64,000 nt of DNA, taken from UHGV virus genome UHGV-1358930; one strand, written 5' to 3'. Position 1 is the first letter of the stretch; each line of letters begins with the position of its first letter. The translations under genes were made by a program, and so were the position numbers. The stretch is from a virus. Shown one piece after another: positions 1 through 62,721 of the stretch. The notes under the pieces are model-generated. The model did not search any database and was not told where the DNA came from. It worked only from the letters and a program-made list of their open reading frames with translations.

Positions 1-1001
1 CAACAGCTACAAGTTTGAGAGGACGGAAAGAAAGCGTCTATTTTGACAAGTTGTTTTCCATACCAGCTGCACTTGTAAGTCAAGAATTCAACGAATTTTG
101 ACCAGCTTGCGTCAGAAATTGCTCGAGCTAGCTTATGATTCTTGATCATATTTTTGACTTTCAAGTTTTCAACACAAATGATGTCGTGGTTTTTGACAAA
201 TTCTGCTGACAGCTTGTGCAAGAAATCGTTTCGTTGATTTGTTACTTTTTCAAATTGTTTAGCAAGGCTAATTCTTAATTTATTTCTGTTTTTAGATCCT
301 TTCTGTTTCTTCAAAAATTGCCTTTGAAGTCTCTTTAACTTCTCAGCTGATTTTGAAAGATACTTTGGATTTTTGATCTTATCACGATCAGAAGTTATTG
401 CGAAATCTTTGATGCCTAGATCAATTCCTACAACAGATCCGGTCTTGTCAAACTCTTCAATTTTAACATCTTTACAACAGATACTTGCGAAATATTTTCC
501 GGAAGCTGTTTTTGAGATGGTTGCCGAAAGCGGGACACCTATGATATCTAAATTTCCTCTAAATTTTACCCATTTGAGTTTAGGTACGAACAATTTGTTG
601 TTTTCAACATGAAATTGAGCCGGTGTTGAATATGTAGATTTATAGGATTGACGGCTTGCTGACTTTTTCTTGAATTTTGGAAATCCTAGATTCTTTCCTT
701 GTTTTATGTTACGGAAGAAATTTTGGTATGCAGTATCAAGATCTCTAAGAGAAGATTGCAAACTCATTGCTTCTACTTCCTTCAAGAAAGCATACTCATC
801 TAATTTCTTCATCTGAGTAAGAAGTGAAGAATTTTGATTATAAGTGTTCGACTTTCCAGTCTCTTCATAATCTTTGATAGATTTAGCCAGATAATAGTTG
901 TAAACAAATCTGCAGCATCCAAAGGTTTTTCCAATTTGCGCAATCTGCTGTTTATTCGGGTATATTCTTATTTTATAAGCTTTCAGAATCATTTTGGTCA
1001 T
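1..1001 (-). CDS. tnpB: TnpB (OrfB_IS605 family RuvC-like, RNA-guided-nuclease-type) protein, C-terminus truncated by window edge
   Basis: Manual translation of the reverse complement from ATG at 1001-999: MTKMILKAYKIRIYPNKQQIAQIGKTFGCCRFVYNYYL..., the typical TnpB N-terminus. RuvC-I GIDLGIKDFAITSD, RuvC-II CVENLKVKNM, and a zinc-finger start SSQTCSCC at the window edge. Absent from the ORF track because it has no in-window stop. Overlaps the tnpA stop by 28 nt. Confidence 0.8.
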   Translation of the reverse strand, partial: MTKMILKAYKIRIYPNKQQIAQIGKTFGCCRFVYNYYLAKSIKDYEETGKSNTYNQNSSLLTQMKKLDEYAFLKEVEAMSLQSSLRDLDTAYQNFFRNIKQGKNLGFPKFKKKSASRQSYKSTYSTPAQFHVENNKLFVPKLKWVKFRGNLDIIGVPLSATISKTASGKYFASICCKDVKIEEFDKTGSVVGIDLGIKDFAITSDRDKIKNPKYLSKSAEKLKRLQRQFLKKQKGSKNRNKLRISLAKQFEKVTNQRNDFLHKLSAEFVKNHDIICVENLKVKNMIKNHKLARAISDASWSKFVEFLTYKCSWYGKQLVKIDAFFPSSQTCSC

Positions 1002-1593
1002 CTTCAAGTGCCTCTCTTATTTTTGCTACTCGACGCTTTGAATACATTTTCATTGAGTAACAATGTAGCAAACTTACGATTTCCTCAAAAATTTCTTCAG
1101 AATCTAATTTTTCTGATCCTACTTGAGAAGCAACAACTATCTCTGTGCCAAATTTCTTAAAAAGATGATAAAATAATTCAAAACCAACACGCGAAAGTCG
1201 ATCTTTGTAAGTGATGACAACTTTAGCGACTTTATAATTAAGCACATCATCTAACAATTTGAAAAATTCTTTTCGCTTATCGAATGATATTCCAGATGCG
1301 ATGTCTTTGAAAACATCATCTACTTGAATACCATTGTTTATGCAGAAGTTATTCAAAATTTCAACTTGTCGACTAAGATCATTTTTCTGTTCAGGAGTAG
1401 AAACTCTAGCATAAATATAGTTGAGACGCATATTTCCTTTATTCAACATCGCATATACATCATCATCGTTGTATATGCGTTTCCCTGTAGGAGATAATTC
1501 ATAACGAATGAGGCCTTTTTTACAATATGTACCGAGTGTAGGTTGTGTAATATCTAATAGTTCTAAAACTTCCTTAGCCTTCATATGTATCAC
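973..1593 (-). CDS. tnpA: IS607-type TnpA serine recombinase (MerR-like HTH fused to resolvase catalytic domain)
   Basis: Catalytic serine motif YARVSTPEQ and DRLSR motif. N-terminal HTH (KAKEVLELLDITQPTLGTYCKKGLI). 206 aa. Confidence 0.85.
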   Translation of the reverse strand: MIHMKAKEVLELLDITQPTLGTYCKKGLIRYELSPTGKRIYNDDDVYAMLNKGNMRLNYIYARVSTPEQKNDLSRQVEILNNFCINNGIQVDDVFKDIASGISFDKRKEFFKLLDDVLNYKVAKVVITYKDRLSRVGFELFYHLFKKFGTEIVVASQVGSEKLDSEEIFEEIVSLLHCYSMKMYSKRRVAKIREALEDDQNDSESL

Positions 1594-1711
1594 CTCAAAA
1601 ATGATATAAGGTTAAGAAATTTATAGAATATGTTTATTTTTAGGAGATTTAATCAATGAACAGGGAGTTCCAGTAAATGACGACAGATATAACAATCGGT
1701 TCAATCTTTGT

Positions 1712-3009: not shown

Positions 3010-3954
3010 ATGTCTGCTAATGTAGAAACAATGTTTAGTGTGAGAGAAGTTCCGTGGCACGGTCTTGGAACTATTGTGCAGGAAGCACCTACTTCTAAAG
3101 ACGCACTTCATCTTGCTGGCCTGGATTGGAATGTTGTCTCTCGTCCGATCTTCACAGAAGACGGACAAGAAATCGAAGGATATAAATCTAATATTCGAGA
3201 TTCTGATAATACAGTACTCGGTATTGTATCTAATAAGTACAAGATTGTTCAGAACGCTGAAGCCTTTGAGTTCACTGATGCGCTTATTTCTGAAGACGTA
3301 AGATACGAAACAGCTGGATCACTTAGAAATGGAAAGCAGATCTGGCTCCTCGCAAAGATGCCTCAGACAAAAATTGTAGGAGATGCGGTAGATCCATATA
3401 TCTGTTTTACAAACAGCCATGACGGCTTAGGTTCTATCAGATGCTGTATGACTCCGGTTCGCGTCGTTTGCAACAACACCTTGTCGCTCGCCCTTGAGAA
3501 CGCCTCGAGATCATGGTCTACTAAACATGTTGGTGATATTTCGACTAAGCTTGCAGAAGCCAGGCGCACATTGCTTCTTGCCAATGACTATATGAGTAAC
3601 TTAGCCGAAACTGCTGATAAGCTTGCAAATACAACATTCACACAGAGCAAGGTTGAGGAGTTCGTTTCTGAGTTGTTTAAAGCACCTGATGACGCAACAG
3701 ATCGAGTAAAGAACAATGTAGAAGCCTCTAAGCAAGCTTTCATGTATTGTTACTTTGCACCAGATATTGCGAAGTTTCAGGGTACTGCGTGGGGAGTTGT
3801 AAATGCGGCTTCTGATTTTGCAACACATGCAGCTCCAGTTCGTAAGACGGCGAAGTACGCAGAAAACCGGTTCTCAAATTTGTTGAATGGTAATGTTATC
3901 ATTGACACTACAATGTTAGCTATGATGAAACTTCTCAATAAGAGCGTCAGTTAA
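3010..3954 (+). CDS. DUF932 / phage-plasmid TIGR03299-like protein
   Basis: Motifs LLAKMPQ and NSHDGLGSIRCCMTPVRVVCNNTL resemble the DUF932 core. RBS GGAGG upstream. Confidence 0.55.
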   Translation: MSANVETMFSVREVPWHGLGTIVQEAPTSKDALHLAGLDWNVVSRPIFTEDGQEIEGYKSNIRDSDNTVLGIVSNKYKIVQNAEAFEFTDALISEDVRYETAGSLRNGKQIWLLAKMPQTKIVGDAVDPYICFTNSHDGLGSIRCCMTPVRVVCNNTLSLALENASRSWSTKHVGDISTKLAEARRTLLLANDYMSNLAETADKLANTTFTQSKVEEFVSELFKAPDDATDRVKNNVEASKQAFMYCYFAPDIAKFQGTAWGVVNAASDFATHAAPVRKTAKYAENRFSNLLNGNVIIDTTMLAMMKLLNKSVS

Positions 3955-3984
3955 TTCCGTATTCGATTTTGACAAATATGCCTG

Positions 3985-4587
3985 TTGGAAGAGATGCTTA
4001 TTTTCAAATCTGATGTGATACGCTCAAAGATGCACTTATGCGCCAGCCATGCCCATCAGGTGACAAAATATGATTTTGAGATTGCTAATTGGCTTGAGAA
4101 TCCTAGTGTTGATGTAGAGTCTATATCCGATGGCGATGGTACATCTTTCGAGAAACTACTGTATGGTAATGACGTAACTGACGGACTATGTCGCCACATT
4201 GAGGAAATTGAGGTAAAAAAATTGACAGAAATCGTTCTAATGCCCTGTAAAAGATGCGGTTACAATCATGGCAGAATAATACCATACGGTCATTTTCAGA
4301 GCAATCAAACTACATATCGTATTTCTTGTCCAAGATGTAGTTATTGTACTAAAGAAAAAGCAACAGTAGAAGAAGCAGCTGAAGCTTGGAACAAGAGGAA
4401 GCGCAATGATGGATTGAAACCATGTCCGTTCTGCGGTGCACATCCTGTTCGGGAATATTTGCCAGACGGAAAAGAATATATCATTTGCTCAAATGCAAAT
4501 TGTTCGTGTCAACCAATGACTGCGGCATACAAATGTAAAGGTACAGCGGCAAGAAACTGGAACAGGAGAATGAAAGATGACTCGTAA
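3985..4587 (+). CDS. Tandem Lar-family restriction-alleviation-like zinc-ribbon protein (start codon uncertain)
   Basis: Two repeats of the Lar-like module: PCKRCGYNHG...CPRCSYC...EEAAEAWNKRK and KPCPFCGAHP...CSNANCSC...AARNWNRR. TTG start in the track, no strong RBS. Confidence 0.5.
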   Translation: MEEMLIFKSDVIRSKMHLCASHAHQVTKYDFEIANWLENPSVDVESISDGDGTSFEKLLYGNDVTDGLCRHIEEIEVKKLTEIVLMPCKRCGYNHGRIIPYGHFQSNQTTYRISCPRCSYCTKEKATVEEAAEAWNKRKRNDGLKPCPFCGAHPVREYLPDGKEYIICSNANCSCQPMTAAYKCKGTAARNWNRRMKDDS

Positions 4588-4712
4588 ACGATTTATCAAG
4601 TTGCTGATGTCTTGTAGAATACAGAGAAATAGCGCGAGACGGTTGGCAGATCTTATGTGCGAAGCACGGTATCCATACTTTTTCGCTTGGATCATTATAG
4701 AATGGAGGTTAC

Positions 4713-4886
4713 ATGCAACATAAGAAACTAATAGAAGAGCTATTAGACGATTGCAATAGTCTTGATATTCTTGCTAGTTACATTGAGCTTGCTCCGGAAT
4801 TAGAACAACTGCGCACTCATCTGATTTCCATCAAGAGTCGAATTTTAGAAGCAGTCGATATTCTGAAGGAGGGGAATAATGATTAA
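4713..4886 (+). CDS. Hypothetical small protein (57 aa)
   Basis: ATG at 4713 with GGAGG 7 nt upstream. Not in the ORF track (<60 aa). Overlaps the next gene by 8 nt. Confidence 0.45.
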   Translation: MQHKKLIEELLDDCNSLDILASYIELAPELEQLRTHLISIKSRILEAVDILKEGNND

Positions 4887-5142
4887 AACTTTTGTTAAGA
4901 AACCGGTTGAAATTCACGCAGTTCAATGGACTGGTGACAATTTCAGTGAGATTGCAGATTTTGTCGGAGCAGAGAATTTAGTCTGTATCGGAAGATGTGG
5001 AGACTTAGATCTAAATATCTACACCTTAGAAGGCATCCATCATGCTGAAGTAGGTGATTGGATTATCTGTGGTGTTAAAGGAGAATTTTATCCTTGCAAA
5101 CCTGATATTTTTGAGCAAACATATGAAGAGGTATCTCAATGA
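4879..5142 (+). CDS. Hypothetical protein
   Basis: Strong RBS GAAGGAGGGG upstream. 87 aa. Confidence 0.6.
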   Translation: MIKTFVKKPVEIHAVQWTGDNFSEIADFVGAENLVCIGRCGDLDLNIYTLEGIHHAEVGDWIICGVKGEFYPCKPDIFEQTYEEVSQ

Positions 5143-5426
5143 TATGGCCTAAAGATATTTCATTTGAAGGGTACAGCAAAAAGAAAGACGAGTGGTTCAA
5201 CGATCCGGATCATTTTCTTGGTGATCCTCCAATTTCTGCTCAGTATGCACTTGATCTGATATTTAAAACCTTGGTAGATGATAAAGAAAATTATCCTTAT
5301 CTTACCACTATGTCAGAAAACGCAGAGCAAACTAACTCAATTATGCTAGAAATATTACTAAGGAAATACAGCAGGAGATATCGTAAATACTTAAAGAAGT
5401 TAAGAAAGGAAAAGCATAATGAGTAA
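5139..5426 (+). CDS. Hypothetical protein
   Basis: ATGA overlap coupling with the upstream gene. 95 aa. Confidence 0.5.
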   Translation: MIWPKDISFEGYSKKKDEWFNDPDHFLGDPPISAQYALDLIFKTLVDDKENYPYLTTMSENAEQTNSIMLEILLRKYSRRYRKYLKKLRKEKHNE

Positions 5427-6247: not shown

Positions 6248-6311
6248 TTTTTTTTATTTTTCCTTTCGAGCTACTGGCACAGCTAACCGCTGTGCCTTTA
6301 GCTTTGATCAA

Positions 6312-6365
6312 ATTATTAACGAATTATTAACGATAGTTGAATTTCTGCTCAAATCGTTATATAAT
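6312..6365 (+). promoter_or_regulatory. Strong sigma70-type promoter preceded by two perfect tandem 11-bp direct repeats (ATTATTAACGA x2)
   Basis: Repeats at 6312-6322 and 6323-6333. -35 TTGAAT at 6337-6342. 17-nt spacer. -10 TATAAT at 6360-6365. Near-identical module at 60654-60707. Confidence 0.7.
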
Positions 6366-6469: not shown

Positions 6470-7660
6470 ATGGCTCAGTATGCAATTTACGAAGAGAATT
6501 TCGATCGTCTGCAGAAGAAAATCACGACAATCGCAAACAAGTGCAAGAAGTTCGGATGTGAGTTCAAGTTTGAAGTAGTTGGAAGCGAACTCCGACAGGT
6601 AACTGATGACGAAGGAAACCAGAGAAACTGCAGATTCATTCTTGTAGAAGCAGAAGGAACTGCTAAGCTCAATGATTGGGAGTTCATTGCTTCTATTGAA
6701 CATAATGAAGGCGGAAACGTCATTCGTACTTTCAAAAAAGACGTAGACATTCCTACTCGTTATTTCAATTCGGATCCAATCTGCGAACATTGCAATAGCA
6801 AACGTCGTCGTAGCAAGACTTGTCTCGTTCGTAACACCGTCACAGGTGAGTGGAAGCAGGTAGGTCTCTCTTGTCTGAAGGATTTTACTTGCGGACTCAG
6901 CGCAGAAGATGTAGCAAAATATATCAGTTTCTTTGATAAGCTGATCGAAGCCGAAGCGCCTTATTCTGGAACTTGGATCAAGCCTTATTGGTACATTTCT
7001 CAGTATCTTCCTTATGTAGCAGAATGCGTTAAGCGATTTGGATACTTCAATAGCTATAGCGAATATCCGACTTCTATGAGAGCTTTCAGCTATTTCGAGG
7101 TTGACGCATTAGGTAGAGAGTACATAGGTAGCAAATCTATCGAGAACGAGATGCTTGATTGTGGGTTTGAAATTACAGAAGAAAGCAAAAAGCTTGCTGA
7201 TGAAACTATCAATTGGTGCAAGAGTCTCTCCAACGAAACAGACGCTTACATGCACAACTTGGAGGTCATCTTTTTCAACGATTATTTCGCAAGAAGCGAG
7301 TTAGGATATGTTACGTCTGCTGTCAAAGCCTACATGCGTCATAAAGACATTGAAGACAAGAAGCGCAAAGAAGCTGCTGAAAGAGCAAAGGTAGCTCAGA
7401 AGTCTTCTCATAAGTACAACGAAGGCGACAAGGTACAATTTGAAGTTGTCAACTTCCGATACATTACTTCTTTCGATAACATGTACGGAACCACTCATCT
7501 TTACAAGTTTGAAGACAAAGAAGGTAACGTCTACTCTTGGTTCGCTTCTTCTGGGTGTGATGAAGAGAAAGTAAAGTCCATCAAAGGCACAGTTAAGTCT
7601 AACGGCGAATACAACGGAGTAAAGGAAACTTGCCTTACTAGATGCAGAGTTAGTTACTAA
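6470..7660 (+). CDS. Hypothetical early protein (396 aa)
   Basis: RBS TGGAGGT. First gene downstream of the repeat-bearing promoter. About 100-nt leader. Confidence 0.6.
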   Translation: MAQYAIYEENFDRLQKKITTIANKCKKFGCEFKFEVVGSELRQVTDDEGNQRNCRFILVEAEGTAKLNDWEFIASIEHNEGGNVIRTFKKDVDIPTRYFNSDPICEHCNSKRRRSKTCLVRNTVTGEWKQVGLSCLKDFTCGLSAEDVAKYISFFDKLIEAEAPYSGTWIKPYWYISQYLPYVAECVKRFGYFNSYSEYPTSMRAFSYFEVDALGREYIGSKSIENEMLDCGFEITEESKKLADETINWCKSLSNETDAYMHNLEVIFFNDYFARSELGYVTSAVKAYMRHKDIEDKKRKEAAERAKVAQKSSHKYNEGDKVQFEVVNFRYITSFDNMYGTTHLYKFEDKEGNVYSWFASSGCDEEKVKSIKGTVKSNGEYNGVKETCLTRCRVSY

Positions 7661-10997: not shown

Positions 10998-13900
10998 ATG
11001 TCAGATAATCCTAGTAACAATAATTACGCTAGCAAATCAGCTAGATTTGTTTCTGAGTCTCAAGGACTGACAGATAACACTACAAAGCAAACAAACGCAA
11101 CTGCAGAACAATCTATCAAGTCACAGGTAATCGAAAATGGTGCAATCCGAGATTATTTAAAATCTATTGATTTGACTACAAAGGAGATACTTCGCAAAGG
11201 TGTTTCGCAGTCAAGTGCAAAAGATAGAATAAAAGACGAAAAAAGCAAGTTTCAGAACGCTGCCAAGGAAGCAGAAAATAGAAGATCTGCTACGCGAGAT
11301 AGTGATAGTAAGAAATCTACTGAAAAGAAAAGATACAGTACATTCTCCGAAGGTGCTGAAGATGCATTCTGGGAAGAAATTCTAGGTAAGAACTTCAAAG
11401 ACCAGATGAGCAGTATTGTTTCTGGCTTTGCAAAAGATTTTGGTGTTAACTTAAAAGACGTACAAGGTGAGCTTGGAAATCAGCTCATGCATCAGGGCAT
11501 GCAAGCTCTTAAGAACACTAAGTTCGGACAAGCTGTTCAGCAGAAAATAGATGATGTAAAAGCAAGTGCGTTTTCAAAGCTTTCGCAGACATTTGATAAA
11601 GGCGCTGAAGGTGGTAAGTCTTACGGCGGAGATGCACTACGTAGTGTAGCTAACCAGATGAAGGGCAAAGAAGCTTCGCCTGCTGCTGAAACAATAAAGA
11701 ACGCAGCTCCTGAAACTGTATCAAAGGTCAGATCTATACTAAGAGATAAAGGATTATCTACAGCTGCTACAGAGTCTGGAAATCTAGGATCTACCGTAGC
11801 AAGCGTTGTAGGAGACGCAATCGGCGGATCTGTACCAGGAGCAGAAATTGCAACCAAAGCTGTTGCAAACGTAGCTACAGACGCTGCAGCAGATATGGCA
11901 ACAGCAGCAGCGGGAAACGCAGCAGCTACAGCTTCTTTGACAACTGCGTCTACAGAAGCAGCAGCAGGTTTATCTGCAGCCGGAGGAACTGCTGGAACCG
12001 CTGGAACCGCAATAGCTGGATTATCAAGCGTAGCAGCTGCAGCTGGCCCAATACTTTTAGCTGTATTGATAGGAATAGAACTATTAACAGACGCAGTCGG
12101 TCCTGCGATTGAAGGGTTCAAAAAATTTGGCGCTGCTTTGAAGAAGTCTGCTAATCGACAGAATGAAACAGACGATAGGCGAGCTGAACTAGCAAAAGAT
12201 AGGCTTGAAGCAGACATAAAAACAATAATAACGGAACCCTTCGACATATTAAAAGAAGCTGCACAAGCTGTATATCAAGCTTGGGACAGTAATCTTCGTC
12301 TCATAAATCAAACTCAAGGATACACAAAATCGGACCTGCAGGATCTGATGGCTATATATGCTCAACGATTACGAGACGAAAATCTATCTAAATATGTCAG
12401 TGGCTCTGATATAACAGCAAATCTAACAAAAGTACTTGAATCTGGTTTATCTGGACAAGTCGCAGAAGAGTTTGCATATGTAGCAACAAAGCTCAACGCA
12501 GCAATACCGACGGAAGACTTCTTCCAGTATTCTTCTACATATGCATCTATCGCCGCGAATCAGATAAAAGCTGGAATGTCTCAAGCAGATGCAATTCAAT
12601 ACGCTACAAAACAGCTGGAGTCATTTGCAAGTAGTTTGCTATATTCTAGCCGTCAGCTTGCCGGTGGATTTAGTTCGGGATTGAAGAATGCATCATCATT
12701 GTTTGAAGAATCTGTAAAGATAACACAAGCAGCAAAAACAGGAAATGCAAGTCAGCTGTCTGCTGTAATGACTGCGGTATCTGCAGCAACTGGTGCAATT
12801 GCGCCAGATCTTGCATCTTCTATGACAGATGCAATAGTAAAAGCAGCAACTGGCGGAAACTCAAGTCAAATTGTTGCACTTAGATCTCTGGCTGGTGTAA
12901 ACGCAGGCAATACAGAATTTTTAAACCAATTAGTATCAGATCCGCAAAGAATATTCTCAACTTTGTTTGAGAACCTCGCTAAGATGCAAAATATGTCTAA
13001 CGACAACTTCATGGAGGTTGCCGAAGGACTTTCCGATGTATTCGGAGTATCAATGGATGCGTTTGCAAGAATCGATTTTAATTATCTTGCAAACGCAATC
13101 AAAAATATGAATACATCTGACGCATCGTTAAACGAAAATATAACTAATCTTAAATCTGGGCAATCTACAACAAATGCTGACATACTCAAGAATCAGCAAA
13201 TAAACCAGTATATAATTGAAAACGGGTTATCGCTTGTCCTAGATAACGAAGCTGCCAGAACAATTCAAGAGCATATGTGGGACGAGCAGATGATGCAGCA
13301 AATTCAAGAGACTACATACGGAGTAGAAATTCAGGGTGCTGCACTAGAGTTATTATCAGGAATTCGTCAAACAATACGTAATTTGATGAACATGCTGAAC
13401 CCGATAGGTTGGTTGGTAAAAACTGTATCCAACGTGTCACAATCTGTGACTGAAGGTGAAGCGCTAAAGGACGATGTAGCTAAGATACTTCAGCTAGGTG
13501 CGGTTGGACAAGGAAACGCTAAATCGTTTTATCAGCTTACTACAAGAGGAAAAGAATTAAATGTAACAAACAATCTTGTAGAGCTACTAGGTGGTAGATC
13601 TAGTTATCAATTAGCTGGTGATTTTTACTCTGCAGTACGAGACGCTTCAGATATATTCAGCCCGATTACGTCTGGTACATTTCGCTTGGCAGATAGCGCA
13701 GCAGAATGGCTGTTGAATAGAGACGCATGGAACAATTATGCTTGGCAAGAAGCATACAACACAATAACGGGAAAGTCTAAACCAACATCTGTATCTAGTA
13801 AGTATACCTGGGGAACTATAAGCAAATCATTAAGCAAATCATTGTCTGCGTCTTCTAGATCAACTTCATTGATATCTAGCGCAGCTTCAAATTCTGCGTT

Positions 13901-36722: not shown

Positions 36723-36805
36723 ATATAGAAGAGTCTGCAGAGGATTAGTTTGTATCGTTAATTTGATTATCAACAAATTCATCTATCAAGGAAGGAATAA
36801 AATAA

Positions 36806-37207
36806 ATGAGCAGAGAATACGAATTTGAATTCAACAGTTATGTACCTCCCAAATACACATACAAAGTTCGCTACAAGGATAAAATGTATTTATTTGATAA
36901 GCTATCCGAATGCTGTAAGTTCTTGAATTCCTTAGACGTACTAGATAGACCAATAAATACTAATAAATTATTGAAGTATCTGAAACATATTGAAGACGGT
37001 TCTTACTCAGCTAAAGTTCCAGATTTTATTCGTAGTAATGTTCGCAGAGAAGAGTTACCTTACAAAATTTGTGAATATTGCGGAAAGAAGATTTATTTAG
37101 GCAGACCGTATTTTATGAGAGATTACAGAAGCAATGTATTCTGCTCTCCAAGATGCCTCGCGTATCATGATAACTCCATCAGACGAATTGATGATTGGCA
37201 AGGTTGA
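36806..37207 (+). CDS. TRASH/FCS-type zinc-ribbon protein, paralog 1
   Basis: CEYCGKKIYLGRPYFMRDYRSNVFCSPRC. N-terminal aromatic beta-hairpin KYTYKVRYKD. RBS AAGGAAGGAA. Confidence 0.6.
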   Translation: MSREYEFEFNSYVPPKYTYKVRYKDKMYLFDKLSECCKFLNSLDVLDRPINTNKLLKYLKHIEDGSYSAKVPDFIRSNVRREELPYKICEYCGKKIYLGRPYFMRDYRSNVFCSPRCLAYHDNSIRRIDDWQG

Positions 37208-37292
37208 TACTTACTAGCGACGGATTGTTATTTAGTAATTTCGTCGCTCATATTTTCAGAATTTAAAAATTTATAAATCGTTAATAATTGTA

Positions 37293-37319
37293 CAAATAGA
37301 TCAAATAGATCAAATAAAT
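37293..37319. repeat. Three tandem 9-bp direct repeats (CAAATAGAT, CAAATAGAT, CAAATAAAT) directly upstream of the RBS of the 37336 gene
   Basis: Read from sequence. An ATCGTTAAT motif lies 8 nt upstream. Confidence 0.85.
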
Positions 37320-37335
37320 CGGAGGAACATCATAC

Positions 37336-37710
37336 ATGGCAGCTAGAGGAAACAACAAGTATTACTACTACATCAAAGGTGTAAACAAAAAATTTACTAC
37401 ATCTCGAGAAGTTTGTAGGTATCTAAAAATTTACCTAAATGTAGCTATATACGAAACAGAGCTATTGAAGTTGCTGAATCATCCAGATCAAGTATTCAAA
37501 TTCGATTTTGATAAGTCCTGGGTTATCGACAACGTATACAGAGAGGAAGTGCCGCATACATATTGTAATAGATGTGGAAAGCGCATATATCAAGGCTCAA
37601 ACGTCTTCCACAGATCTGGAGCAGAATTCAAAGACAAACTATTCTGCTCTATTAGATGTTTTGCACTAGAATACACAGATTTAGTCGAATCTACCTATCA
37701 TCCTCAGTAA
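37336..37710 (+). CDS. TRASH/FCS-type zinc-ribbon protein, paralog 2
   Basis: CNRCGKRIYQGSNVFHRSGAEFKDKLFCSIRC. N-terminal NNKYYYYIKG. RBS CGGAGGAAC. Confidence 0.6.
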   Translation: MAARGNNKYYYYIKGVNKKFTTSREVCRYLKIYLNVAIYETELLKLLNHPDQVFKFDFDKSWVIDNVYREEVPHTYCNRCGKRIYQGSNVFHRSGAEFKDKLFCSIRCFALEYTDLVESTYHPQ

Positions 37711-37768
37711 AACTCAGTTCAGTAAAATCAATTTAACTCAATAATATCAACATACCAGGAGGTACAAC

Positions 37769-38710
37769 ATGACAAGAGAAAAACAGTTAGAAACACTTCA
37801 TAAGATCCGTGATCTCAACTTCAGCATCGCGTGGAATTATGATGAACTTAGACGTGAGCAGAATCGATGTTTTCAGTCTCCTCCGGCAGCACCTACAATG
37901 CCAGAAATCAGAAAGTCATATCCTGTTGTGAAATCTAATAGGAAATATGACTGGAAAACAAGTTTTGGTGTAATGGGAGCAGGTCTACTTTTGAGCATTA
38001 TGTTCATTACAATTTCGTCGATCATTCCTATCGGATTTTTCTGGTATCTGTCGTCTCTTGCAAACATCTTTTTCGCATGCGCTGCTATCATTTGGCCTAT
38101 CGGATTTACAGTTTGGTGGTATGAAAAACGTAAGCAAGATGTAAACAACATTTTAAACTCTGCAGAGTACAAAGCCAAATGCGCACAGATTGATTTAGAA
38201 TACAAAGCAGCTGTGGAAAAAGCAACTAATACATATAATAATGCTGTACATGAATATAAAACAGTTACTATTCCGAAGTATGAAGAAGAGAAACGTAAAT
38301 TTGAAGAAGTCAGAAATTCGGCTGTACGAGAATTGAAGCACAAGCTGTCTGAAGACAATGCAGAGCTAAATTCCCTTTACGATTCAACTAAGATTCTGCC
38401 TAGTCCGTACAGAAGTATCAAAGCTATTGAATTTATCACGAACTACATGGATACGTCTGATGCCTCACTTGAAGATGCAATTCTTAGCTATGACAGAAAT
38501 CTTCAGCTGGATCTTGATAATCAGAAGCTTTCTGAGCAGATTAGAGAGAATGATATCAAAGATAGAATGGCGAATGCACAGGAAGCTGCAAATGACATCG
38601 CTGAGCGAAATAACGAAATTGCTGAACAGACAAGACGTGATGCAAACCGAGCAGCGTTTATTGCTGCAGTACAGAGACATAATACTAACAAACACCTCAA
38701 ACGAATGTGA
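37769..38710 (+). CDS. Membrane protein with two TM helices and a long C-terminal coiled coil
   Basis: Hydrophobic segments GAGLLLSIMFITISSIIPIGFFWYL and IFFACAAIIWPIGFTVWWY. RBS CAGGAGGTAC. Confidence 0.55.
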   Translation: MTREKQLETLHKIRDLNFSIAWNYDELRREQNRCFQSPPAAPTMPEIRKSYPVVKSNRKYDWKTSFGVMGAGLLLSIMFITISSIIPIGFFWYLSSLANIFFACAAIIWPIGFTVWWYEKRKQDVNNILNSAEYKAKCAQIDLEYKAAVEKATNTYNNAVHEYKTVTIPKYEEEKRKFEEVRNSAVRELKHKLSEDNAELNSLYDSTKILPSPYRSIKAIEFITNYMDTSDASLEDAILSYDRNLQLDLDNQKLSEQIRENDIKDRMANAQEAANDIAERNNEIAEQTRRDANRAAFIAAVQRHNTNKHLKRM

Positions 38711-38745
38711 TTCAGATAAACAAAATAGAAAGGATGTAAACAATT

Positions 38746-39153
38746 ATGGTCGCATCTCCAAGATACTATTACTACGTGAATAACACTCGGTTTAACTCTG
38801 CTTCAGAAGCTGTAGCATATATCAACTCGAATGGATTCTGCGATAAACGTATCACAGACTCTCATCTCCGTATTATGCTCAATTATCTGGAGCACCCGAC
38901 CAAGCCTATTAAAGTCTGGCCGTGGATACGAGACCATGTCAAGCGAGAGTTAGTTCCATACATTGAATGCAGCTTCTGCAGGAAACCTATCTATGTAGGA
39001 GAATCTTATGTAACATTTAATGATGTAGATCATGGTATTCATAGATTTTGTTCTACGCATTGCGGTGCAATGTATAACCACAAGCAGATCAAGTATGAGA
39101 CTGTAACTCTGGCAGATACAAACCCTATGAATATTCCGGAAGAACTTCAGTAA
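38746..39153 (+). CDS. TRASH/FCS-type zinc-ribbon protein, paralog 3
   Basis: CSFCRKPIYVGESYVTFNDVDHGIHRFCSTHC. N-terminal SPRYYYYVNN. RBS AAAGGATG. Confidence 0.55.
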   Translation: MVASPRYYYYVNNTRFNSASEAVAYINSNGFCDKRITDSHLRIMLNYLEHPTKPIKVWPWIRDHVKRELVPYIECSFCRKPIYVGESYVTFNDVDHGIHRFCSTHCGAMYNHKQIKYETVTLADTNPMNIPEELQ

Positions 39154-39155
39154 TC

Positions 39156-39794
39156 ATGAAATACATATATAGATGTGGATCACGCTTATTTGATGATGCA
39201 GCAGCTTGCGCAGCATATATAAAATCTACGCTGAATCTGTCATATATGACATCAAATCTGTTGCTAGATATTGTTGCTGGCAAAACAACAGGACAAGATA
39301 GCAAGACTGTAAATTGGATAAAAAAGCATGTAGAGCAGCTTCCTTCTCCTTACATACCTTGCTGTCGATGCGATAGACCAATATATACAGGTGATTGGAT
39401 ATACACAGCAGGTAAATCAGATAATATGGTGTTCTGTAGCGTAAATTGTTTGGCCAGCTATTATTTGACCATAACAAAACGTAAATTCAAGTTAGGAGAA
39501 GCTTTAACCAACATTTCTGATGACAATGAACTAATCGAAAATTGCAATCTGTCTAAACGAACTAAGTATGCGCTGCTTCGATCCGGATACAGTACACTAG
39601 GAAAAGTTGCAAGGTTATCTTTCATGGATACTGAGGCAATACGAGGATTTGGATCTACGTGCTTAGCAGAATTGATGAATTTCCTGGAAGATAATTCATT
39701 CGATATAACTAGTTTATATCCGCCAGATGAGCGTAGATATCTAAGAAAGCGTCAATCTGTAGAAATCATTCGTGAGAGGTTAAGAAAACAATGA
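39156..39794 (+). CDS. TRASH/FCS-type zinc-ribbon protein, paralog 4, fused to a C-terminal RNA polymerase alpha-CTD-like helix-hairpin-helix domain
   Basis: CCRCDRPIYTGDWIYTAGKSDNMVFCSVNC. Then NLSKRTKYALLRSGYSTLGKVARLSFMDTEAIRGFGSTCLAELMNFLEDN matches the alphaCTD pattern (LSxRxxNxLxxxGxxTxxxL...GxxSxxEL). Confidence 0.5.
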   Translation: MKYIYRCGSRLFDDAAACAAYIKSTLNLSYMTSNLLLDIVAGKTTGQDSKTVNWIKKHVEQLPSPYIPCCRCDRPIYTGDWIYTAGKSDNMVFCSVNCLASYYLTITKRKFKLGEALTNISDDNELIENCNLSKRTKYALLRSGYSTLGKVARLSFMDTEAIRGFGSTCLAELMNFLEDNSFDITSLYPPDERRYLRKRQSVEIIRERLRKQ

Positions 39795-46957: not shown

Positions 46958-49672
46958 ATGAACAGAATACAGATAAATCAGAATGGAAACTACTACGAGA
47001 TAAAATTTAAATATGATCCAACTTTAGTTGCTATGATAAAGCAGATTCCTGGAAAGGAATGGAATCCGGGTGAAAAGCTTTGGAGAATTCATAAAGATAA
47101 GTTAGGAATGCTGCTGAATATGCTCAAGGGTTCTAAGTACGCAGATGCTTATGAATTACAGAGTAATGAGCAGATAGGTGAAAATGCAGAAATTGAACCT
47201 ACTACGACTATCCCGAATGTTGATTTAACTGGAATCAAGTTATTTGTCGAAGATGGCAGTAAGCTGTATCCACATCAGTTAGATTTTATGAAATATGCGA
47301 TTGATCGTCAGCGCAAAGGATACAGAAGCGGGTTTCTTTGCGCAGACGATCCCGGTTGCATCGACGGAGATGCAACAATTCGTATCAAAGAATCTGGAAA
47401 GCCGTGGACGCGTGAGACCAAATTGTCTAACGTGTACAAGTTGTTCTCAGATGGGCATGTATTCAAAGTCAAATGTATGGTTAATGACAGATTTCAATAT
47501 ATGCCAATCAAATATGTATTAGATAGAGGAAATAGATCTGTTGTTAAGGTTACGTTTGAATCCGGATACATTATCTGTACACCTGATCATGAAATATATA
47601 CAGAAAATGGATGGGTTCCTGCAGAAAGCTTGTCTACTGGAGATACAATATTTACAAATGGTGATCCTGAAAGATGTATAAACTGTGGAAGTACAGAAAA
47701 CATCATTCAGTCATCTGACGCAACCTACAAAGGATACTGCAGAAGATGCATGTATAAATTTAGAAAGTGCGGCGTGCTTGACGATGATGTAGTTGTAAAG
47801 ACCGTTGATGAAGATGGATATGTTAGATTGAAGGGTAGACCTACAAGACTATGGCCTTTGCATGACAAATCAAATGGAATGGGAATATATGAGCATCATC
47901 AGGTTTGGTATGAACACACTGGGCATATTATAGACACTAAAACTGAAGCGATTCATCACATCAATCATATCAAGACTGATAATCGATTTGAGAATTTGAA
48001 GTTATTGTCTATTTCCGAGCATGCTAAACTCCATGCTGACATGTCTACAAATCATTTGCCACAGTTTCAAGATCGAGACTTTTATTACTGCCATGGAGTA
48101 AAGACTTGGTGTGTTCCTCATTCTGAAGCCGTCTTATCTGTGGAGCCTTTTGGAACAAAACATGTATATGACATAGTAATAGATAGCGAAGATATCCATA
48201 ATTTTATTGCAAACAATGTAGTTGTACATAACTGCGGTAAGACTTTAGAGAGTATTAACTATGCAATGTACAATAAGCTATATAACAGATACAAACATTG
48301 TTTAGTCATCTGTAACGTCAATACTTCGAAGTATAACTGGCAAGATGATATCAGGAAGCATACCAATGGAAAAATGAGTGGATATATTTTAGGATCTAGA
48401 AAACGGAAACATCCGAAGCCTGGGCAAGCTATTTATATCGTAGGAAGTAGCCAAAACAAATTAGATGATCTATTGTGCGGACATATGTATGGAGATGATA
48501 CTGAACCCGAATTACCCTATTTTATCATCTTAAATGTAGAAGCTATCAGAATGAAAGTAGGAAAACGATACCCTATCGCAGATAAAATCATCGACATGAT
48601 AAATGATGGCGAACTTAATATGATTATCATTGATGAGGTACATAAAAATATGTCACCCACATCCTTACAAGGCAAGCAGATACTTAGGATAAAAGACAAA
48701 ACTCATAGTAGATGTACATGGATATCGTTAACAGGTACTCCTATCGTCAATAAACCTACAGATGTTTTCTTACCTATGCGATTGATAGATGCACACAATT
48801 TTACTAGTTACTACAAATGGTGTCAGTATTTCTGCGTATATGGAGGATACGGTGGGCATGAAGTAATTGCGTATCGAAATATTCCTAGGCTTAAATTTAT
48901 GTTACAGCAAAATATGATTCGTCGGAGAAAAGAAGATGTTTTGAATCTACCTGATAAGATTCATATGGATGTATACGTAGAAAACACTAAATACCAGTCC
49001 AGACTTGCTGAAGAAGTTACAATGGACTTGATTGCACACGCAGAAGAAATTGCAAATGATTTGAACCCTATGGTCAGATTCTTACGACTTCGTCAGGTTA
49101 ATGGATCTCCAGAATTAGTTGATCATGATCTTCGAGTAGATAACACTTATTTGAAATACAACGCAAAGTTAGTCAAGTTGTTAGAATTACTTGAGGAGAT
49201 TCACGAAAGAGGAGAGAAGACAGTTATCTTCTCCAACTGGGTCGAGCCACTTCGTACACTATTCAAATTCTTATCTTCAAAATATAAAGTATGCTGCTTT
49301 ACAGGTACAATGTCTGAATCAGAAAGACAAAAGCATAAGCGTGTGTTTATGAACAATCCTGAATACACTGTTATGATAGGCACTATTGGTGCACTTGGAA
49401 CTACTCATACATTAACTGCCGCAAACAATATCATATTTTATGACGAGCCCTGGACATACGCAGATAAATTACAAGCAGAAGATAGATGCCATCGAATTTC
49501 GGCAAAAAAGTCCGTTAATGTATATACACTTATTTCTAAAGATACAATTGACGAACGAGTACATGATATAGTGTATAGCAAGAAAGACACATCGGATTAT
49601 TTAGTTGACAACAAGCTTGACTTCAAAAACAATCCAAATCTAGTTGCTACACTACTAGGTAAAGACATCTGA
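46958..49672 (+). CDS. SNF2-family (DEAD-like) helicase interrupted by an intein
   Basis: After removing residues 134-425 the Walker A reads ADDPGCGKT. Helicase C motifs (FTGTMSESERQ..., QAEDRCHRI) are at the C-terminus. Confidence 0.7.
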   Translation: MNRIQINQNGNYYEIKFKYDPTLVAMIKQIPGKEWNPGEKLWRIHKDKLGMLLNMLKGSKYADAYELQSNEQIGENAEIEPTTTIPNVDLTGIKLFVEDGSKLYPHQLDFMKYAIDRQRKGYRSGFLCADDPGCIDGDATIRIKESGKPWTRETKLSNVYKLFSDGHVFKVKCMVNDRFQYMPIKYVLDRGNRSVVKVTFESGYIICTPDHEIYTENGWVPAESLSTGDTIFTNGDPERCINCGSTENIIQSSDATYKGYCRRCMYKFRKCGVLDDDVVVKTVDEDGYVRLKGRPTRLWPLHDKSNGMGIYEHHQVWYEHTGHIIDTKTEAIHHINHIKTDNRFENLKLLSISEHAKLHADMSTNHLPQFQDRDFYYCHGVKTWCVPHSEAVLSVEPFGTKHVYDIVIDSEDIHNFIANNVVVHNCGKTLESINYAMYNKLYNRYKHCLVICNVNTSKYNWQDDIRKHTNGKMSGYILGSRKRKHPKPGQAIYIVGSSQNKLDDLLCGHMYGDDTEPELPYFIILNVEAIRMKVGKRYPIADKIIDMINDGELNMIIIDEVHKNMSPTSLQGKQILRIKDKTHSRCTWISLTGTPIVNKPTDVFLPMRLIDAHNFTSYYKWCQYFCVYGGYGGHEVIAYRNIPRLKFMLQQNMIRRRKEDVLNLPDKIHMDVYVENTKYQSRLAEEVTMDLIAHAEEIANDLNPMVRFLRLRQVNGSPELVDHDLRVDNTYLKYNAKLVKLLELLEEIHERGEKTVIFSNWVEPLRTLFKFLSSKYKVCCFTGTMSESERQKHKRVFMNNPEYTVMIGTIGALGTTHTLTAANNIIFYDEPWTYADKLQAEDRCHRISAKKSVNVYTLISKDTIDERVHDIVYSKKDTSDYLVDNKLDFKNNPNLVATLLGKDI
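47357..48232 (+). mobile_element. Intein (292 aa) with an embedded HNH endonuclease, inserted in the helicase P-loop
   Basis: Begins CIDGDATI (block A). Block B ICTPDHEIYT. HNH core HHINHIKTDNRFENLKLLSISEHAKLH. Blocks F/G VYDIVIDSEDIHNFIANNVVVHN, followed by +1 Cys of CGKT. Confidence 0.75.
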
Positions 49673-56022: not shown

Positions 56023-56571
56023 ATGCCTACATTGAATAATCTACCTAGATTATCCGAAGATCAACGAAAGTTAGTCGAAGATAACATGAACTTAGCTTAC
56101 AAGTGTGCATCTGAAATTGCCCCGCACACAACATTAGAATATGAAGATGTAGTTCAATATTGCTTATTAGGGCTGTGTAAGGCTGCATTGATATTTGACG
56201 AATCTAAAGGTGCACTATCTTCTGTCGCATACCAATGTATGCGAAATGAAATATACATGAAAACTAGGCGCACAAAGAAACGCATAGCACAAAACGAACT
56301 ATTAAGTTTAGATGCGCCTTGTCCAAATACAGAAGATTTTACACTTTTAGATACAATAGAAGACTCATATGACAGAATATCCGAAGCAGAATCCTATATG
56401 GATCTGATGTCTGCCATAAGCAAAGTGCCAATAAGCAGACGTCATATTGCTCAGTATCTGATAGATAACCCTCAAAGCCCTCAAGGCGTAGTTGCCAAAA
56501 AATTTAATTGTACTCAATCAAATATATCAAGAGTTAAAAAAGAGCTAATAAAACATTGGCTAAATACATAA
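56023..56571 (+). CDS. Phage-encoded sigma-70-family sigma factor (region 2 plus region 4)
   Basis: Region 2-like EDVVQYCLLGLCKAALIFDESKGALSSVAYQCMRNEIY. Region 4 HTH ISRRHIAQYLIDNPQSPQGVVAKKFNCTQSNISRVKKEL. Confidence 0.65.
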   Translation: MPTLNNLPRLSEDQRKLVEDNMNLAYKCASEIAPHTTLEYEDVVQYCLLGLCKAALIFDESKGALSSVAYQCMRNEIYMKTRRTKKRIAQNELLSLDAPCPNTEDFTLLDTIEDSYDRISEAESYMDLMSAISKVPISRRHIAQYLIDNPQSPQGVVAKKFNCTQSNISRVKKELIKHWLNT

Positions 56572-60566: not shown

Positions 60567-60601
60567 CATAGCTCTTGCATTCTAACAAATTGATCGTTAT
60601 A

Positions 60602-60636
60602 TAAGACGTAGGAATTCATCCTGCGTCTTATTTTTA
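60602..60636 (+). terminator. Rho-independent terminator
   Basis: Stem TAAGACGTAGG / CCTGCGTCTTA, 6-nt loop, T5. Confidence 0.75.
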
Positions 60637-60653
60637 TTGTTCAACAATCATTA

Positions 60654-60707
60654 AATATTAACGAATTATTAACGACCGTTGAAATTATCATCAAAATCGC
60701 TTATAAT
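60654..60707 (+). promoter_or_regulatory. Second copy of the direct-repeat promoter module (AATATTAACGA ATTATTAACGA, -35 TTGAAA, 17-nt spacer, -10 TATAAT)
   Basis: -35 at 60679-60684, -10 at 60702-60707. Same architecture as 6312-6365. Confidence 0.7.
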
Positions 60708-60745: not shown

Positions 60746-61102
60746 ATGAAAAGATTCAGCTCTGTATTGTCCGCGATTTTTACTATTCTGTCTGCACTGT
60801 GCTTTGTATTCTGCTTTTCTATAGATACCGAGCAAGATTCATGGTTCATGTATATGGGACTTGCGTTTTTAGGATTTATTATTTCTATCGCGTTATCTGC
60901 ATTCGCAGGAAACTTATATAAGTTGGTTGGAAGCGTTGTTGCATTTGTTTCTGTTATTGCCGCATCAATTGAAATGAAACGCCACCCGAACAGCCGCCGC
61001 ACCAAGGCGTTGATCAGCACATATACTAATCGTAGAAATCAATTCAATTATAGCAAACTTTATCACAATGCAAAGCAAGTTTATTTGAAAGGAAATAGAT
61101 GA
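60746..61102 (+). CDS. Small membrane protein (three predicted TM helices)
   Basis: RBS CGGAGGTCA. Hydrophobic N-terminal two-thirds, basic tail. Confidence 0.55.
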   Translation: MKRFSSVLSAIFTILSALCFVFCFSIDTEQDSWFMYMGLAFLGFIISIALSAFAGNLYKLVGSVVAFVSVIAASIEMKRHPNSRRTKALISTYTNRRNQFNYSKLYHNAKQVYLKGNR

Positions 61103-62721
61103 TGGCTATATCTCTTACATCTCAGCAGCAGACAGCAGTAAATAGCACCAGTTCTAAGATACTGTGCTTAGCAGGAGCAGGTAGCGGTAAAAGCCGTGTT
61201 CTTGTAGAACGTGCTCATAGACTTGCATCAGAGAGCAATCCTGAGTCCATACTATGTTTGACGTTTACTAACGCAGCAGCAGCTGAAATGAGATCAAGGT
61301 ATAAAGCATGGTATTCAGACGATATCTTACCCATATTCAAAACATTTCATGGATACTGTTATGATCTAATATGCAAAGATGCTAGAATTCGACAAGTGTT
61401 AGGGTATTCTAGTATTCCGACCATTCCGAGCGATCATGTTTTATCTACAATCAAAATAAGCAATTTACTTAAGTTAAGTATATCTGTATCTGAGCAGACA
61501 TTGAAGAAAAAAGCTAGAACTGACATCAAATCTAAATACAAATATGACATATTTTTGAAATCTGTTTATAAGGAATTGATTTCTAAAAACTATATCACAT
61601 TTGATATGATGACAGATATGGTAAGTGAGCTGTTTGAGAAGTCCGATGCATCTGTATCCATATACAAGAAACGTGTGTCTAATATACTGATTGACGAGTT
61701 TCAAGACACTTCACCAGACCAATGGAAGTTCGCTAGCAGCTTTTCAGACGCTGATATATTTGTCGTTGCTGATGAAAGACAAGCTATCTATGCGTTCCGA
61801 GGTGCGGATAGCTCAATCACAAAATCTTTGTTTAAAGACGATGCATTTGAAAAAATATTGTTGGATCATAATTTCAGGTCCACACAACAAATCTGTGACT
61901 ACGCCAACCAAATAATTAAGTCGTCCGGAGAGCCGCTTCACATTGCGCTGAAATCTTCTGTTTCTGGCCCATCTGTGAAAGAAATTCGATCAGATAGCGC
62001 ACCCTTTGTATATCCGTTAGGTAGCAACAATACAGCTAGATTTTTATCTGAATACAGTAAACTCAAAGGTTCAACAGCTTTATTATTCAGAACAAACAAA
62101 GAGGTATCAGAAGCTGTCAGCATGTTATCGGATAATAATATAAAGTATGATGCATACAGAGTAAACTCAAATGATGTAAAGAATTATCTTAGATCTATAA
62201 TAGATGATGAGTTTGCGGTTTCATGGCTATCTGATACGCTGCCGAATATAGCTCAAAGCGAATTCATTCGTCTATCTAATATAGTGCCTCCAGAGGACTC
62301 TAGATACGCTTTGTTTAGATCTAACTTCGCCACGAATGATCCAGTACGTCACCACTGCCAAGTTATTGACAAGTTGCGACTAATATATAACAGTGATACG
62401 TCTACTTCTACTAAAATGGCAGATATATGTGCAGTGTTGAACATCAAAAACATCTCAGAGTTTGACGAAAACATAGACAAAAATATTGAATGTTTGATTG
62501 ATAGTGTTGAAAATCATGATTCCAATATCGGCAATGATTCACAATCGTTATATGTAGGTACAATACATAGTGCTAAGGGACTTGAATGGGACAATGTATT
62601 CTTATGGAATGTCAATTGTTATTCCTTCAAACTTAAATCCGAAGAGGACTGGAACTTGTACTATGTAGGTGCTACAAGAGCAAAACAAAATTTATTTGTA
62701 TTCAAAGGAGAGAACATGTGA
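61099..62721 (+). CDS. UvrD/Rep/PcrA-family (superfamily 1) DNA helicase, short form
   Basis: Walker A AGAGSGKSRVL. Motif IDEFQDTSPDQW. Motif VI VGATRAKQNLFVF. Confidence 0.7.
   Translation: MMAISLTSQQQTAVNSTSSKILCLAGAGSGKSRVLVERAHRLASESNPESILCLTFTNAAAAEMRSRYKAWYSDDILPIFKTFHGYCYDLICKDARIRQVLGYSSIPTIPSDHVLSTIKISNLLKLSISVSEQTLKKKARTDIKSKYKYDIFLKSVYKELISKNYITFDMMTDMVSELFEKSDASVSIYKKRVSNILIDEFQDTSPDQWKFASSFSDADIFVVADERQAIYAFRGADSSITKSLFKDDAFEKILLDHNFRSTQQICDYANQIIKSSGEPLHIALKSSVSGPSVKEIRSDSAPFVYPLGSNNTARFLSEYSKLKGSTALLFRTNKEVSEAVSMLSDNNIKYDAYRVNSNDVKNYLRSIIDDEFAVSWLSDTLPNIAQSEFIRLSNIVPPEDSRYALFRSNFATNDPVRHHCQVIDKLRLIYNSDTSTSTKMADICAVLNIKNISEFDENIDKNIECLIDSVENHDSNIGNDSQSLYVGTIHSAKGLEWDNVFLWNVNCYSFKLKSEEDWNLYYVGATRAKQNLFVFKGENM

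Follow-up and report, generated by a model that had tools for sequence, protein, structure and literature searches.

What could be the function of two 11-bp direct repeats that stand immediately upstream of the -35 box of two nearly identical promoters lying far apart in a phage genome? The question is raised by a stretch of 64,000 nucleotides from the virus genome UHGV-1358930, termed here the window. At site 1, on the + strand, the upstream module is formed by the repeats ATTATTAACGA and ATTATTAACGA (6312-6322 and 6323-6333), followed by the linker TAG (6334-6336) and by a core promoter composed of TTGAAT (-35, 6337-6342), a 17-nt spacer and TATAAT (-10, 6360-6365). At site 2, also on the + strand, the repeats are AATATTAACGA (60654-60664) and ATTATTAACGA (60665-60675), the linker is CCG, and the core comprises TTGAAA (-35, 60679-60684), a 17-nt spacer and TATAAT (-10, 60702-60707). 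Both modules were read directly from the sequence. The original prediction had described two copies with the layout (A/T)TATTAACGA-ATTATTAACGA, 3 nt, TTGAA(T/A), 17 nt, TATAAT, some 54 kb apart in the same orientation; these coordinates hold, the distance being 54,342 nt with both copies on the + strand. The analysis indicates that the two sites belong to a lineage-specific family of putative strong promoters, which would be read by the host RNA polymerase.

Even if up to 3 mismatches are allowed, the window holds just two occurrences of the 21-mer WTATTAACGAATTATTAACGA, against 0.01 expected, and none of 100 shuffled sequences reached two. Likewise, TTGAAW-N17-TATAAT is present only at sites 1 and 2 (0.14 expected). 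Judged by sigma-70/sigmaA criteria (a -35 near TTGACA, a 17±1-bp spacer and a TATAAT -10), both cores display 10 of 12 matches to the consensus and are the sole such intergenic sites in the window. Assuming a transcription start ~7 nt past TATAAT, which is inferred from the sequence, the module covers positions -60 to -39; A/T bases occupy 16 of its 22 positions (73%). The spacer of site 1 holds ATCGTTA at 6353-6359, the phage-specific promoter element discussed below, and ATCGTTATATAAT spans this spacer and the -10; the spacer of site 2 contains ATCGCT. Each site lies directly 3' of a hairpin/T-run terminator and 5' of an operon with a strong GGAGG ribosome-binding site, in keeping with their predicted role as sigma-70/sigmaA-type promoters of transcription units. 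Avoidance of TTAACG on the coding strand was considered and set aside: its 4 occurrences all lie in modules, and the Markov expectation is only 6.6, hence no signal.

A family of module promoters

The further copies, whose search had been proposed together with the pair, do exist, and the notion of a twin pair does not survive them. The near-identical 161-kb contig OBYM01000008.1 carries five module promoters, P_A to P_E (found in the loci L116, L129 and L139 and, for two of them, in L151), so that at least five are present per genome. In this naming, P_A is site 1 and P_B is site 2. P_C heads small genes without recognised family, P_D heads dCMP deaminase, ligase-like and ThyX-like genes, the last two judged from their N-terminal sequences only, and P_E heads the genes of a 230-residue protein and of a QueD-like protein. 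The window's own genome is represented by L178, which comes from a 162,229-bp contig and matches the window at 100% identity along 11.3 kb; this genome bears a third copy of the module (P_C) at the window-equivalent position 72,537, some 72.5 kb in. All copies of the module promoter lie on one strand, and every intergenic match of a stringent sigmaA-promoter scan in the DNA of this lineage bears the module. Overall, exact-pattern scans of viral and metagenomic collections, complemented by a regular-expression survey, yielded 20 sequence variants that we grouped into about eight promoter positions. To note, the QueD/PTPS-like gene of the P_E operon is located at 606-1046 of L116, on the minus strand, in a related 161-kb genome; the presence of such a gene behind a module promoter hints at 7-deazaguanine DNA modification in the phage.

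When 2.9 million viral contigs were scanned for exact matches to the proximal repeat with its adjoining core promoter, only three loci came up, each of them already known and belonging to this phage. Such a confinement argues that the architecture is not a generic feature of strong promoters. Across the variants, a conserved block of 22-25 bp reads AAAW-TATTAACGAAT-TATTAACGR. TATTAA is invariant in all repeats of the 20 variants and the CG of the promoter-proximal repeat is found in 20 of 20, while in a few lineages the CGA of the distal repeat is swapped for AGA, GAA or CAA. The retention of a CG inside an A/T-rich block suggests base-specific reading rather than mere A/T richness. The repeats follow each other in direct orientation with a period of exactly 11 bp, and the gap between module and -35 takes only four values across the variants, 2, 3, 12 or 13 nt, which form two classes differing by one helical turn. 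The gap is 3 nt at most promoters and 2 nt in the integrative element described below; it reaches 12 nt at P_A in a lineage with ~91% protein identity and 13 nt at P_E. With a start assumed 7 nt past the -10, the module of these longer-gap variants would lie at about -70 to -49. The -35 box of all phage copies is TTGAAT, TTGAAA or TTGACT, and the module is kept where the core differs (the TTGACT type, with a 13-nt linker).

The conservation of the module extends to relatives (L144, L156, L166 and L174) whose translated alignments with the window lineage average 54-66% identity. At their orthologous promoters, TATTAACGAATTATTAACG is unchanged at every base and the -35 and TATAATATAA are kept as well; differences are seen in the 3-nt linker, over most of the spacer and in the flanks. 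At site 1, the module block is identical at the orthologous promoters of L156 and L174 (~60% protein identity). A module that stays identical while linker, spacer and flanks drift is not a mere remnant of duplication, and appears to be constrained as tightly as the hexamers themselves. In the more distant relative L054 (~13350-13440), a TTGACT-18-TATAAT promoter is preceded, at the position of the module, by an A/T-only 10-bp tandem repeat, AAAATTTATA x2 (13395). A minus-strand ATCGTTAT pair in L053 lies within a coding region and was taken as chance.

Upstream promoter modules and tandem activator sites are already well known. What is new is that an entire class of promoters, in a gut phage family hitherto uncharacterised, is marked by a tandem repeat of exact sequence, and that this form is both combined with a second, phage-specific promoter and common to an unrelated mobile element. 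Very little is known of how the large uncultured Firmicutes phages of the human gut control their transcription, and a concrete, testable regulatory map is now gained for them: 22-bp module promoters, an ATCGTTA(T/A) element, a phage sigma factor and a protein resembling the C-terminal domain of the RNA polymerase alpha subunit (alpha-CTD). The early promoters of phages T4, T5 and SPO1 offer a parallel, as they too occur in several consensus host-type copies that head operons after terminators and are conserved beyond the hexamers. In the present family, however, the extra block is an exact tandem repeat, and several copies are joined by a phage-specific promoter element.

Candidate readers of the module

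The reading preferred here, tentatively and with slightly less than even confidence, is that the module serves a sequence-specific protein as its docking site, arranged in tandem from -60 to -39 with an OmpR/SARP-like geometry. Two protomers, one on each 11-bp repeat, would line up head-to-tail along the same helix face and, from about -60 to -39, would contact RNA polymerase via alpha-CTD or sigma region 4. As the same module heads all five operons (those of the 396-residue protein, of UvrD and the SbcC-like protein, of dCMP deaminase, ligase and ThyX, and of QueD among them), a single factor would co-regulate them. The module recurs, keeps its phasing, is conserved at the level of single bases, CG included, and stays tied to host-type promoters. 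The bound protein itself is a proposal; it may activate these promoters or shut them off, and may be encoded by the host or by the phage. If a specific protein does bind, the module defines a phage regulon and offers a handle for finding its regulator.

Tandem winged-helix activators are known to use direct repeats with an 11-bp period beside the -35, and SARP regulators bind direct repeats with this same period. OmpR, PhoB and SARP sites, such as the proximal OmpR sites at ~-60 to -40, the pho boxes and the SARP heptad repeats with their 11-bp period, resemble the module in that they are direct repeats of 10-11-bp period, total ~20-22 bp, abut the -35 and present one helix face. The period of the module falls within this range. 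In contrast, the promoters of such activators usually have no good -35, whereas the module promoters have TTGAAT, TTGAAA or TTGACT, and the poor -35 that goes with activator dependence is not found.

Further indications come from outside the phage: a very large database, queried with the motif itself, gave about 100 matches, many of them clearly random. In gut bacteria of 26-29% guanine plus cytosine (GC), two tandem TATTAACGAA units stand 5-7 nt upstream of a -10-like box without -35, and a third unit follows 31 nt further on at a locus whose operon encodes a 318-residue protein and a SARP-family regulator (BTAD and AAA domains). Identical tandem units thus precede the operon of a SARP-family regulator, a further likeness to the OmpR/PhoB/SARP sites. 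The arrangement, namely a terminator, TATTAACGAATTATTAACGA, the -10-like box and the third unit, is found in L104 (8334-10428) and in 15 orthologous loci (L085, L093, L094, L097 and others). The proteins of this locus have no homologue in any phage locus examined.

A second set of matches belongs to an integrative element of gut Clostridia, in which the identical module, followed by AT and TTGAAT-17-TATAAT, heads the genes of a small and a large serine recombinase. The element also encodes a primase and an XRE-type regulator, and is found on many human-gut contigs (L078, L115, L138, L145, L175 and ~10 further loci); its exact recombinase is named from Hominenteromicrobium. The element and the phage have no proteins in common, the comparison returning only a tRNA gene and a generic UvrD/PcrA similarity. 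The module it bears hints at an exchange of promoter cassettes, or at cross-talk, between gut mobile elements. In L138, the recombinase gene breaks off after 39 residues and adjoins genes of Anaerostipes hadrus; the GC content of this locus (36.9%) is near that of the phage (38%), which is a weak hint to the host. A literature search gave nothing relevant on an Anaerostipes phage, and a search for the motif yielded only primers. Together, the SARP-locus and integrative-element matches are at most suggestive.

Several points weigh against a docking protein. The ~100 kb of phage-family DNA examined yielded no gene of winged-helix or SARP-like type. With cores that are already near consensus, the promoters should not need an activator, and the transcription starts from which positions are counted are inferred from the sequence. 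The position of the module is precisely that of a factor-independent UP element, and 73% of its bases are A/T; the A/T-only repeat of L054 in the same place suggests that the conserved job may be just that of an upstream A/T element. Finally, the SARP-locus and integrative-element matches stem from a search built on the motif, and coincidence or horizontal transfer of a promoter cassette may explain them.

The foremost alternative is a factor-independent UP-like element, in which the A/T-rich octamers ATTATTAA, one turn apart, would dock two alpha-CTDs of the host RNA polymerase, perhaps assisted by DNA curvature, making the promoters very strong without any extra protein. The original prediction had proposed either a class-I activator site or a strong UP element; a discrete, selected element does stand at that position, and a plain UP element is disfavoured by the invariant CG and by a poor match to the UP consensus. 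The UP-like reading remains a serious one, even if we judge it unlikely on balance. Like UP elements, the module is A/T-rich, lies directly upstream of the -35 of consensus promoters that need no activator, displays two subsites about one turn apart (11-bp period) and tolerates displacement by a full turn. Its position, -60 to -39 with the start assumed ~7 nt past TATAAT, agrees with that of UP elements (about -60 to -38), the tandem repeat at L054:13395 is in the same place and consists of A/T only, and a factor that every host possesses, as is the case for RNA polymerase, would fit the recurrence of the same module in a mobile element of gut Clostridia that is unrelated to the phage.

The UP consensus is nnAAAWWTWTTTTnnnAAAnnn, however, and the module matches it poorly: C and G fall inside the would-be distal subsite core, and the TpA-rich TATTAA is not an A-tract, none being present. 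UP elements are degenerate, whereas the direct repeat of the module is exact and is conserved base by base, with a proximal CG that is invariant across lineages of ~55-65% protein identity and that minor-groove reading by alpha-CTD would not need. Moreover, the architecture is seen in no other phage among the 2.9 million viral contigs. Were the module UP-like all the same, such exactness of sequence would be unusual in Clostridia, and the element would make a useful part for strong promoters.

Other known repeat-binding systems were compared with the module through their consensus sequences. The 0A box of Spo0A has the consensus TGNCGAA; TAACGAA matches TGTCGAA at 5 of 7 positions without the conserved G, and the period is 11 bp as against 10 bp. 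For DnaA, whose box has the consensus TTATNCACA, TTATTAACG mismatches the CACA core. Neither these sites nor those of PurBox, cre, SaeR (GTTAA-N6-GTTAA), CiaR, WalR and PhoP fit well enough. Iterons and partition arrays, with at least four repeats near replication or partition genes, were also set aside, the module having two repeats per site at five dispersed promoters without adjacent rep or par genes.

The unit TATTAACGAA(A/G/T) also forms longer arrays (3 to >10 units), carried by at least eight contigs that are unrelated to one another, seven of them environmental (L072, L077/L102/L143/L168, L099, L118/L171, L134, L083/L101/L136 and L090) and one viral (L045, 258 kb). Displaying no protein similarity to the phage, these contigs with their tandem ATTATTAACGA arrays were treated as unrelated to it. 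In a different phage (L015/L016), upstream of a homologue of the 396-residue gene product with 41% identity, several TATCTTGAA copies surround TTGACA-17-TAGAAT beside a divergent gene, an arrangement that looks like a classical repressor-operator.

The phage-specific ATCGTTA element

The original prediction had also pointed to a motif, ATCGTTAAT, upstream of many other genes. Exact copies are indeed found at 36754, 37277, 43479 and 46414, on the + strand and all intergenic, the first (36754-36762) being located upstream of a zinc-finger gene. Counting further copies of this second promoter class, elements start at 2965, 34825, 37277, 43479 and 46414 (+), and also at 60593. Family-wide, the motif is (g/a)aATCGTTA(T/A), and about one copy in four has a TGTAG located 14-18 nt from where the motif starts. 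It lies at least ~30 nt before start codons, often right after terminators, without a conserved -35, and in 281 kb of family DNA it counts 57 unique copies outside open reading frames (ORFs) versus 30 inside, a ~9-fold enrichment in density. It is also seen in L046, L050-L054, L174 and others. These features point to a phage-specific promoter, which would probably be read by a phage sigma factor. The phage encodes a sigma-70-family factor of 182 residues (56023-56571, +; Sigma70_r2 3e-08, phrog_351 3e-23), a candidate partner in an early-to-late switch.

One promoter-like element of this class, ATCGTTATATAAGACGTAG (60593-60611, +), overlaps the left hairpin arm of the terminator that precedes site 2, an arrangement retained in L144 (~60% protein identity); an exact-pattern scan of viral contigs for it returned only one already-known locus. 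Transcripts initiated there would not contain the full hairpin and would read through, whereas those from upstream would terminate. Several module promoters are themselves composite; in three of the five, ATCG(T/C)T stands directly 5' of the -10.

The module and the phage-specific element share a core, the 8-mer TCGTTAAT, on opposite strands. All eight exact TCGTTAAT occurrences in the window are intergenic, and the sharing is unlikely to be pure chance, the estimated probability being ~1e-3 or less for this 8-nt overlap. On the reverse strand the module reads TCGTTAATAAT x2, and the element at 37277 reads ATCGTTAATAATTG, a 13-nt match. From such a likeness it had been supposed that one factor recognises both classes in opposite orientations. 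The repeats could then be inverted copies of the upstream half of ATCGTTAAT, to which the phage sigma holoenzyme, or another reader of that element, would bind on the opposite strand at -60 to -39, thereby occluding or remodelling the host-type promoter as infection proceeds. The sigma factor encoded by the phage and the ATCG(T/C)T of three of the five module promoters speak for this possibility, in addition to the shared core. Nevertheless, we consider it improbable. The repeats match TCGTTAAT only, on the opposite strand; they have no TGTAG box, most have no leading A, and no gene follows them, nor does the minus strand show an evident gene that a divergent transcript could serve. Conservation differs as well: in the module TATTAA is invariant and the distal CG variable, in the phage-specific element the core is ATCGTTA. 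Furthermore, the ~22-kb segments sampled from distant relatives (helicase 51-61% identical) contain ATCGTTA promoters and no module. The idea of a single factor is thus left weakly supported, and ATCGTTAAT is best taken as an element separate from the module.

The elements at 36754 and 37277 head a cluster of four tandem paralogues with FCS/MYM-type zinc fingers (36806-39794), the last of which adds an alpha-CTD-like domain. This protein of 212 residues (39156-39794, +) combines the zinc finger with a C-terminal domain related to PF03118 (24.5 bits), in which the equivalents of R265 and G296 are kept and those of N268, K298 and S299 are not. Being encoded in a cluster headed by phage-specific elements, it could act late at a UP-like site, and it is a candidate binder or competitor at the module.

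Following on from the docking-site reading, the module might be the operator of a dedicated trans-acting factor that links the 162-kb gut phage with the unrelated integrative element of gut Clostridia, a proposal that we regard as decidedly improbable. The factor may be phage-encoded, for example the zinc-finger/alpha-CTD-like protein at 39156-39794, which would bind or compete at the module. If so, the recombinase promoter would let the integrative element sense infection by this phage family, a satellite-helper cross-talk analogous to that of P2 Cox acting on P4. Precedents are p4 of phage phi29 and host Spo0A at the A2b/A2c/A3 promoters, where specific sites just upstream of sigmaA/sigma70 promoters serve a temporal switch, and P2 Cox at P4 PLL, where the cox boxes are direct repeats one turn apart acting across two mobile elements, reminiscent of a module common to a phage and an integrative element. 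They differ in that neither a p4 or Cox homologue nor a matching sequence is seen here.

Least credible of all, and largely refuted by the footprint of conservation, is a module without function of its own, which would persist from a past duplication of promoters, or from gene conversion, in this genome. The promoters are indeed paralogous as a whole, sharing TATAATATAA and parts of the spacer, but the module is identical at orthologous promoters (~55-65% protein identity) whose neighbouring bases have diverged, it is kept with a different core (TTGACT, 13-nt linker), and its phasing is limited to 2-3 or 12-13 nt.

Operons and surrounding genes

The operon preceding site 1 is closed by a terminator hairpin, GGCACAGC..GCTGTGCC followed by TTT (6276-6296, +), identified by a terminator scan. 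The first gene behind site 1 (6470-7660, +) encodes 396 residues and belongs to phrog_2319, of unknown function; one distant phage homologue carries a RecT-like annotation. Site 1 had been predicted to drive this gene as an early one. The ORF is indeed downstream; the label "early" is conjectural. The module operons encode recombination, repair and nucleotide-metabolism functions, and several of them also carry the phage-specific element.

Upstream of site 2, the terminator hairpin reads AAGACGTAGGA-attca-TCCTGCGTCTT followed by ATTTTT (60603-60635, +; read from the sequence) and is kept in L001 and L144. The genes expected behind this promoter, for a membrane protein, a UvrD-like helicase and an SbcC-like protein, are all found: a hydrophobic protein of 118 residues (60746-61102, +), a UvrD-family helicase of 540 residues (61099-62721, +; Pfam 1e-43) and, downstream of a 128-residue ORF, a 604-residue SMC/AAA_23 SbcC-like ATPase that runs off the window end.

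Almost all genes of the window are on the + strand and its GC content is ~38%. It encodes tail, baseplate and lysis proteins, a helicase, a RecU-like protein, a holin and an amidase, as well as anti-defence proteins (Tad8, Lar), the sigma-70-family factor and the alpha-CTD-like domain protein. Just 5' of site 1, a cluster of anti-defence type (3010-5426) assembles DUF932, a Lar restriction-alleviation domain and a Tad8 anti-Thoeris protein. No match to the site 1 region (megablast) or to the 1197-residue protein (tblastn) was found among deposited phage genomes, and no Rfam RNA family anywhere in the window. The window proteins do recur on metagenomic contigs of ~162 kb, and several related contigs are labelled human gut.

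Two insertion sequences (IS) are present in this genome. The first, at 973-1593 on the minus strand, encodes an IS607-type TnpA (MerR helix-turn-helix and serine recombinase) and lies within a low-GC patch (33.7%, window 1-1600); as a clue to the host this transposase is uninformative, its best genome matches being 61-64% identical (Anoxybacillus, Niallia) beside many archaea. The second, of IS605 type, encodes an OrfB/Cas12f-like TnpB (17055-18311 of L178), ~7 kb past the window end. A replicative-type helicase of 904 residues (46958-49672) has an HNH endonuclease segment at about residues 280-360, which may be an inserted homing element. Finally, ATTAAT is absent from the whole window (~54 expected) and AACGTT occurs twice (~21 expected), a scarcity that looks like avoidance of host restriction sites.

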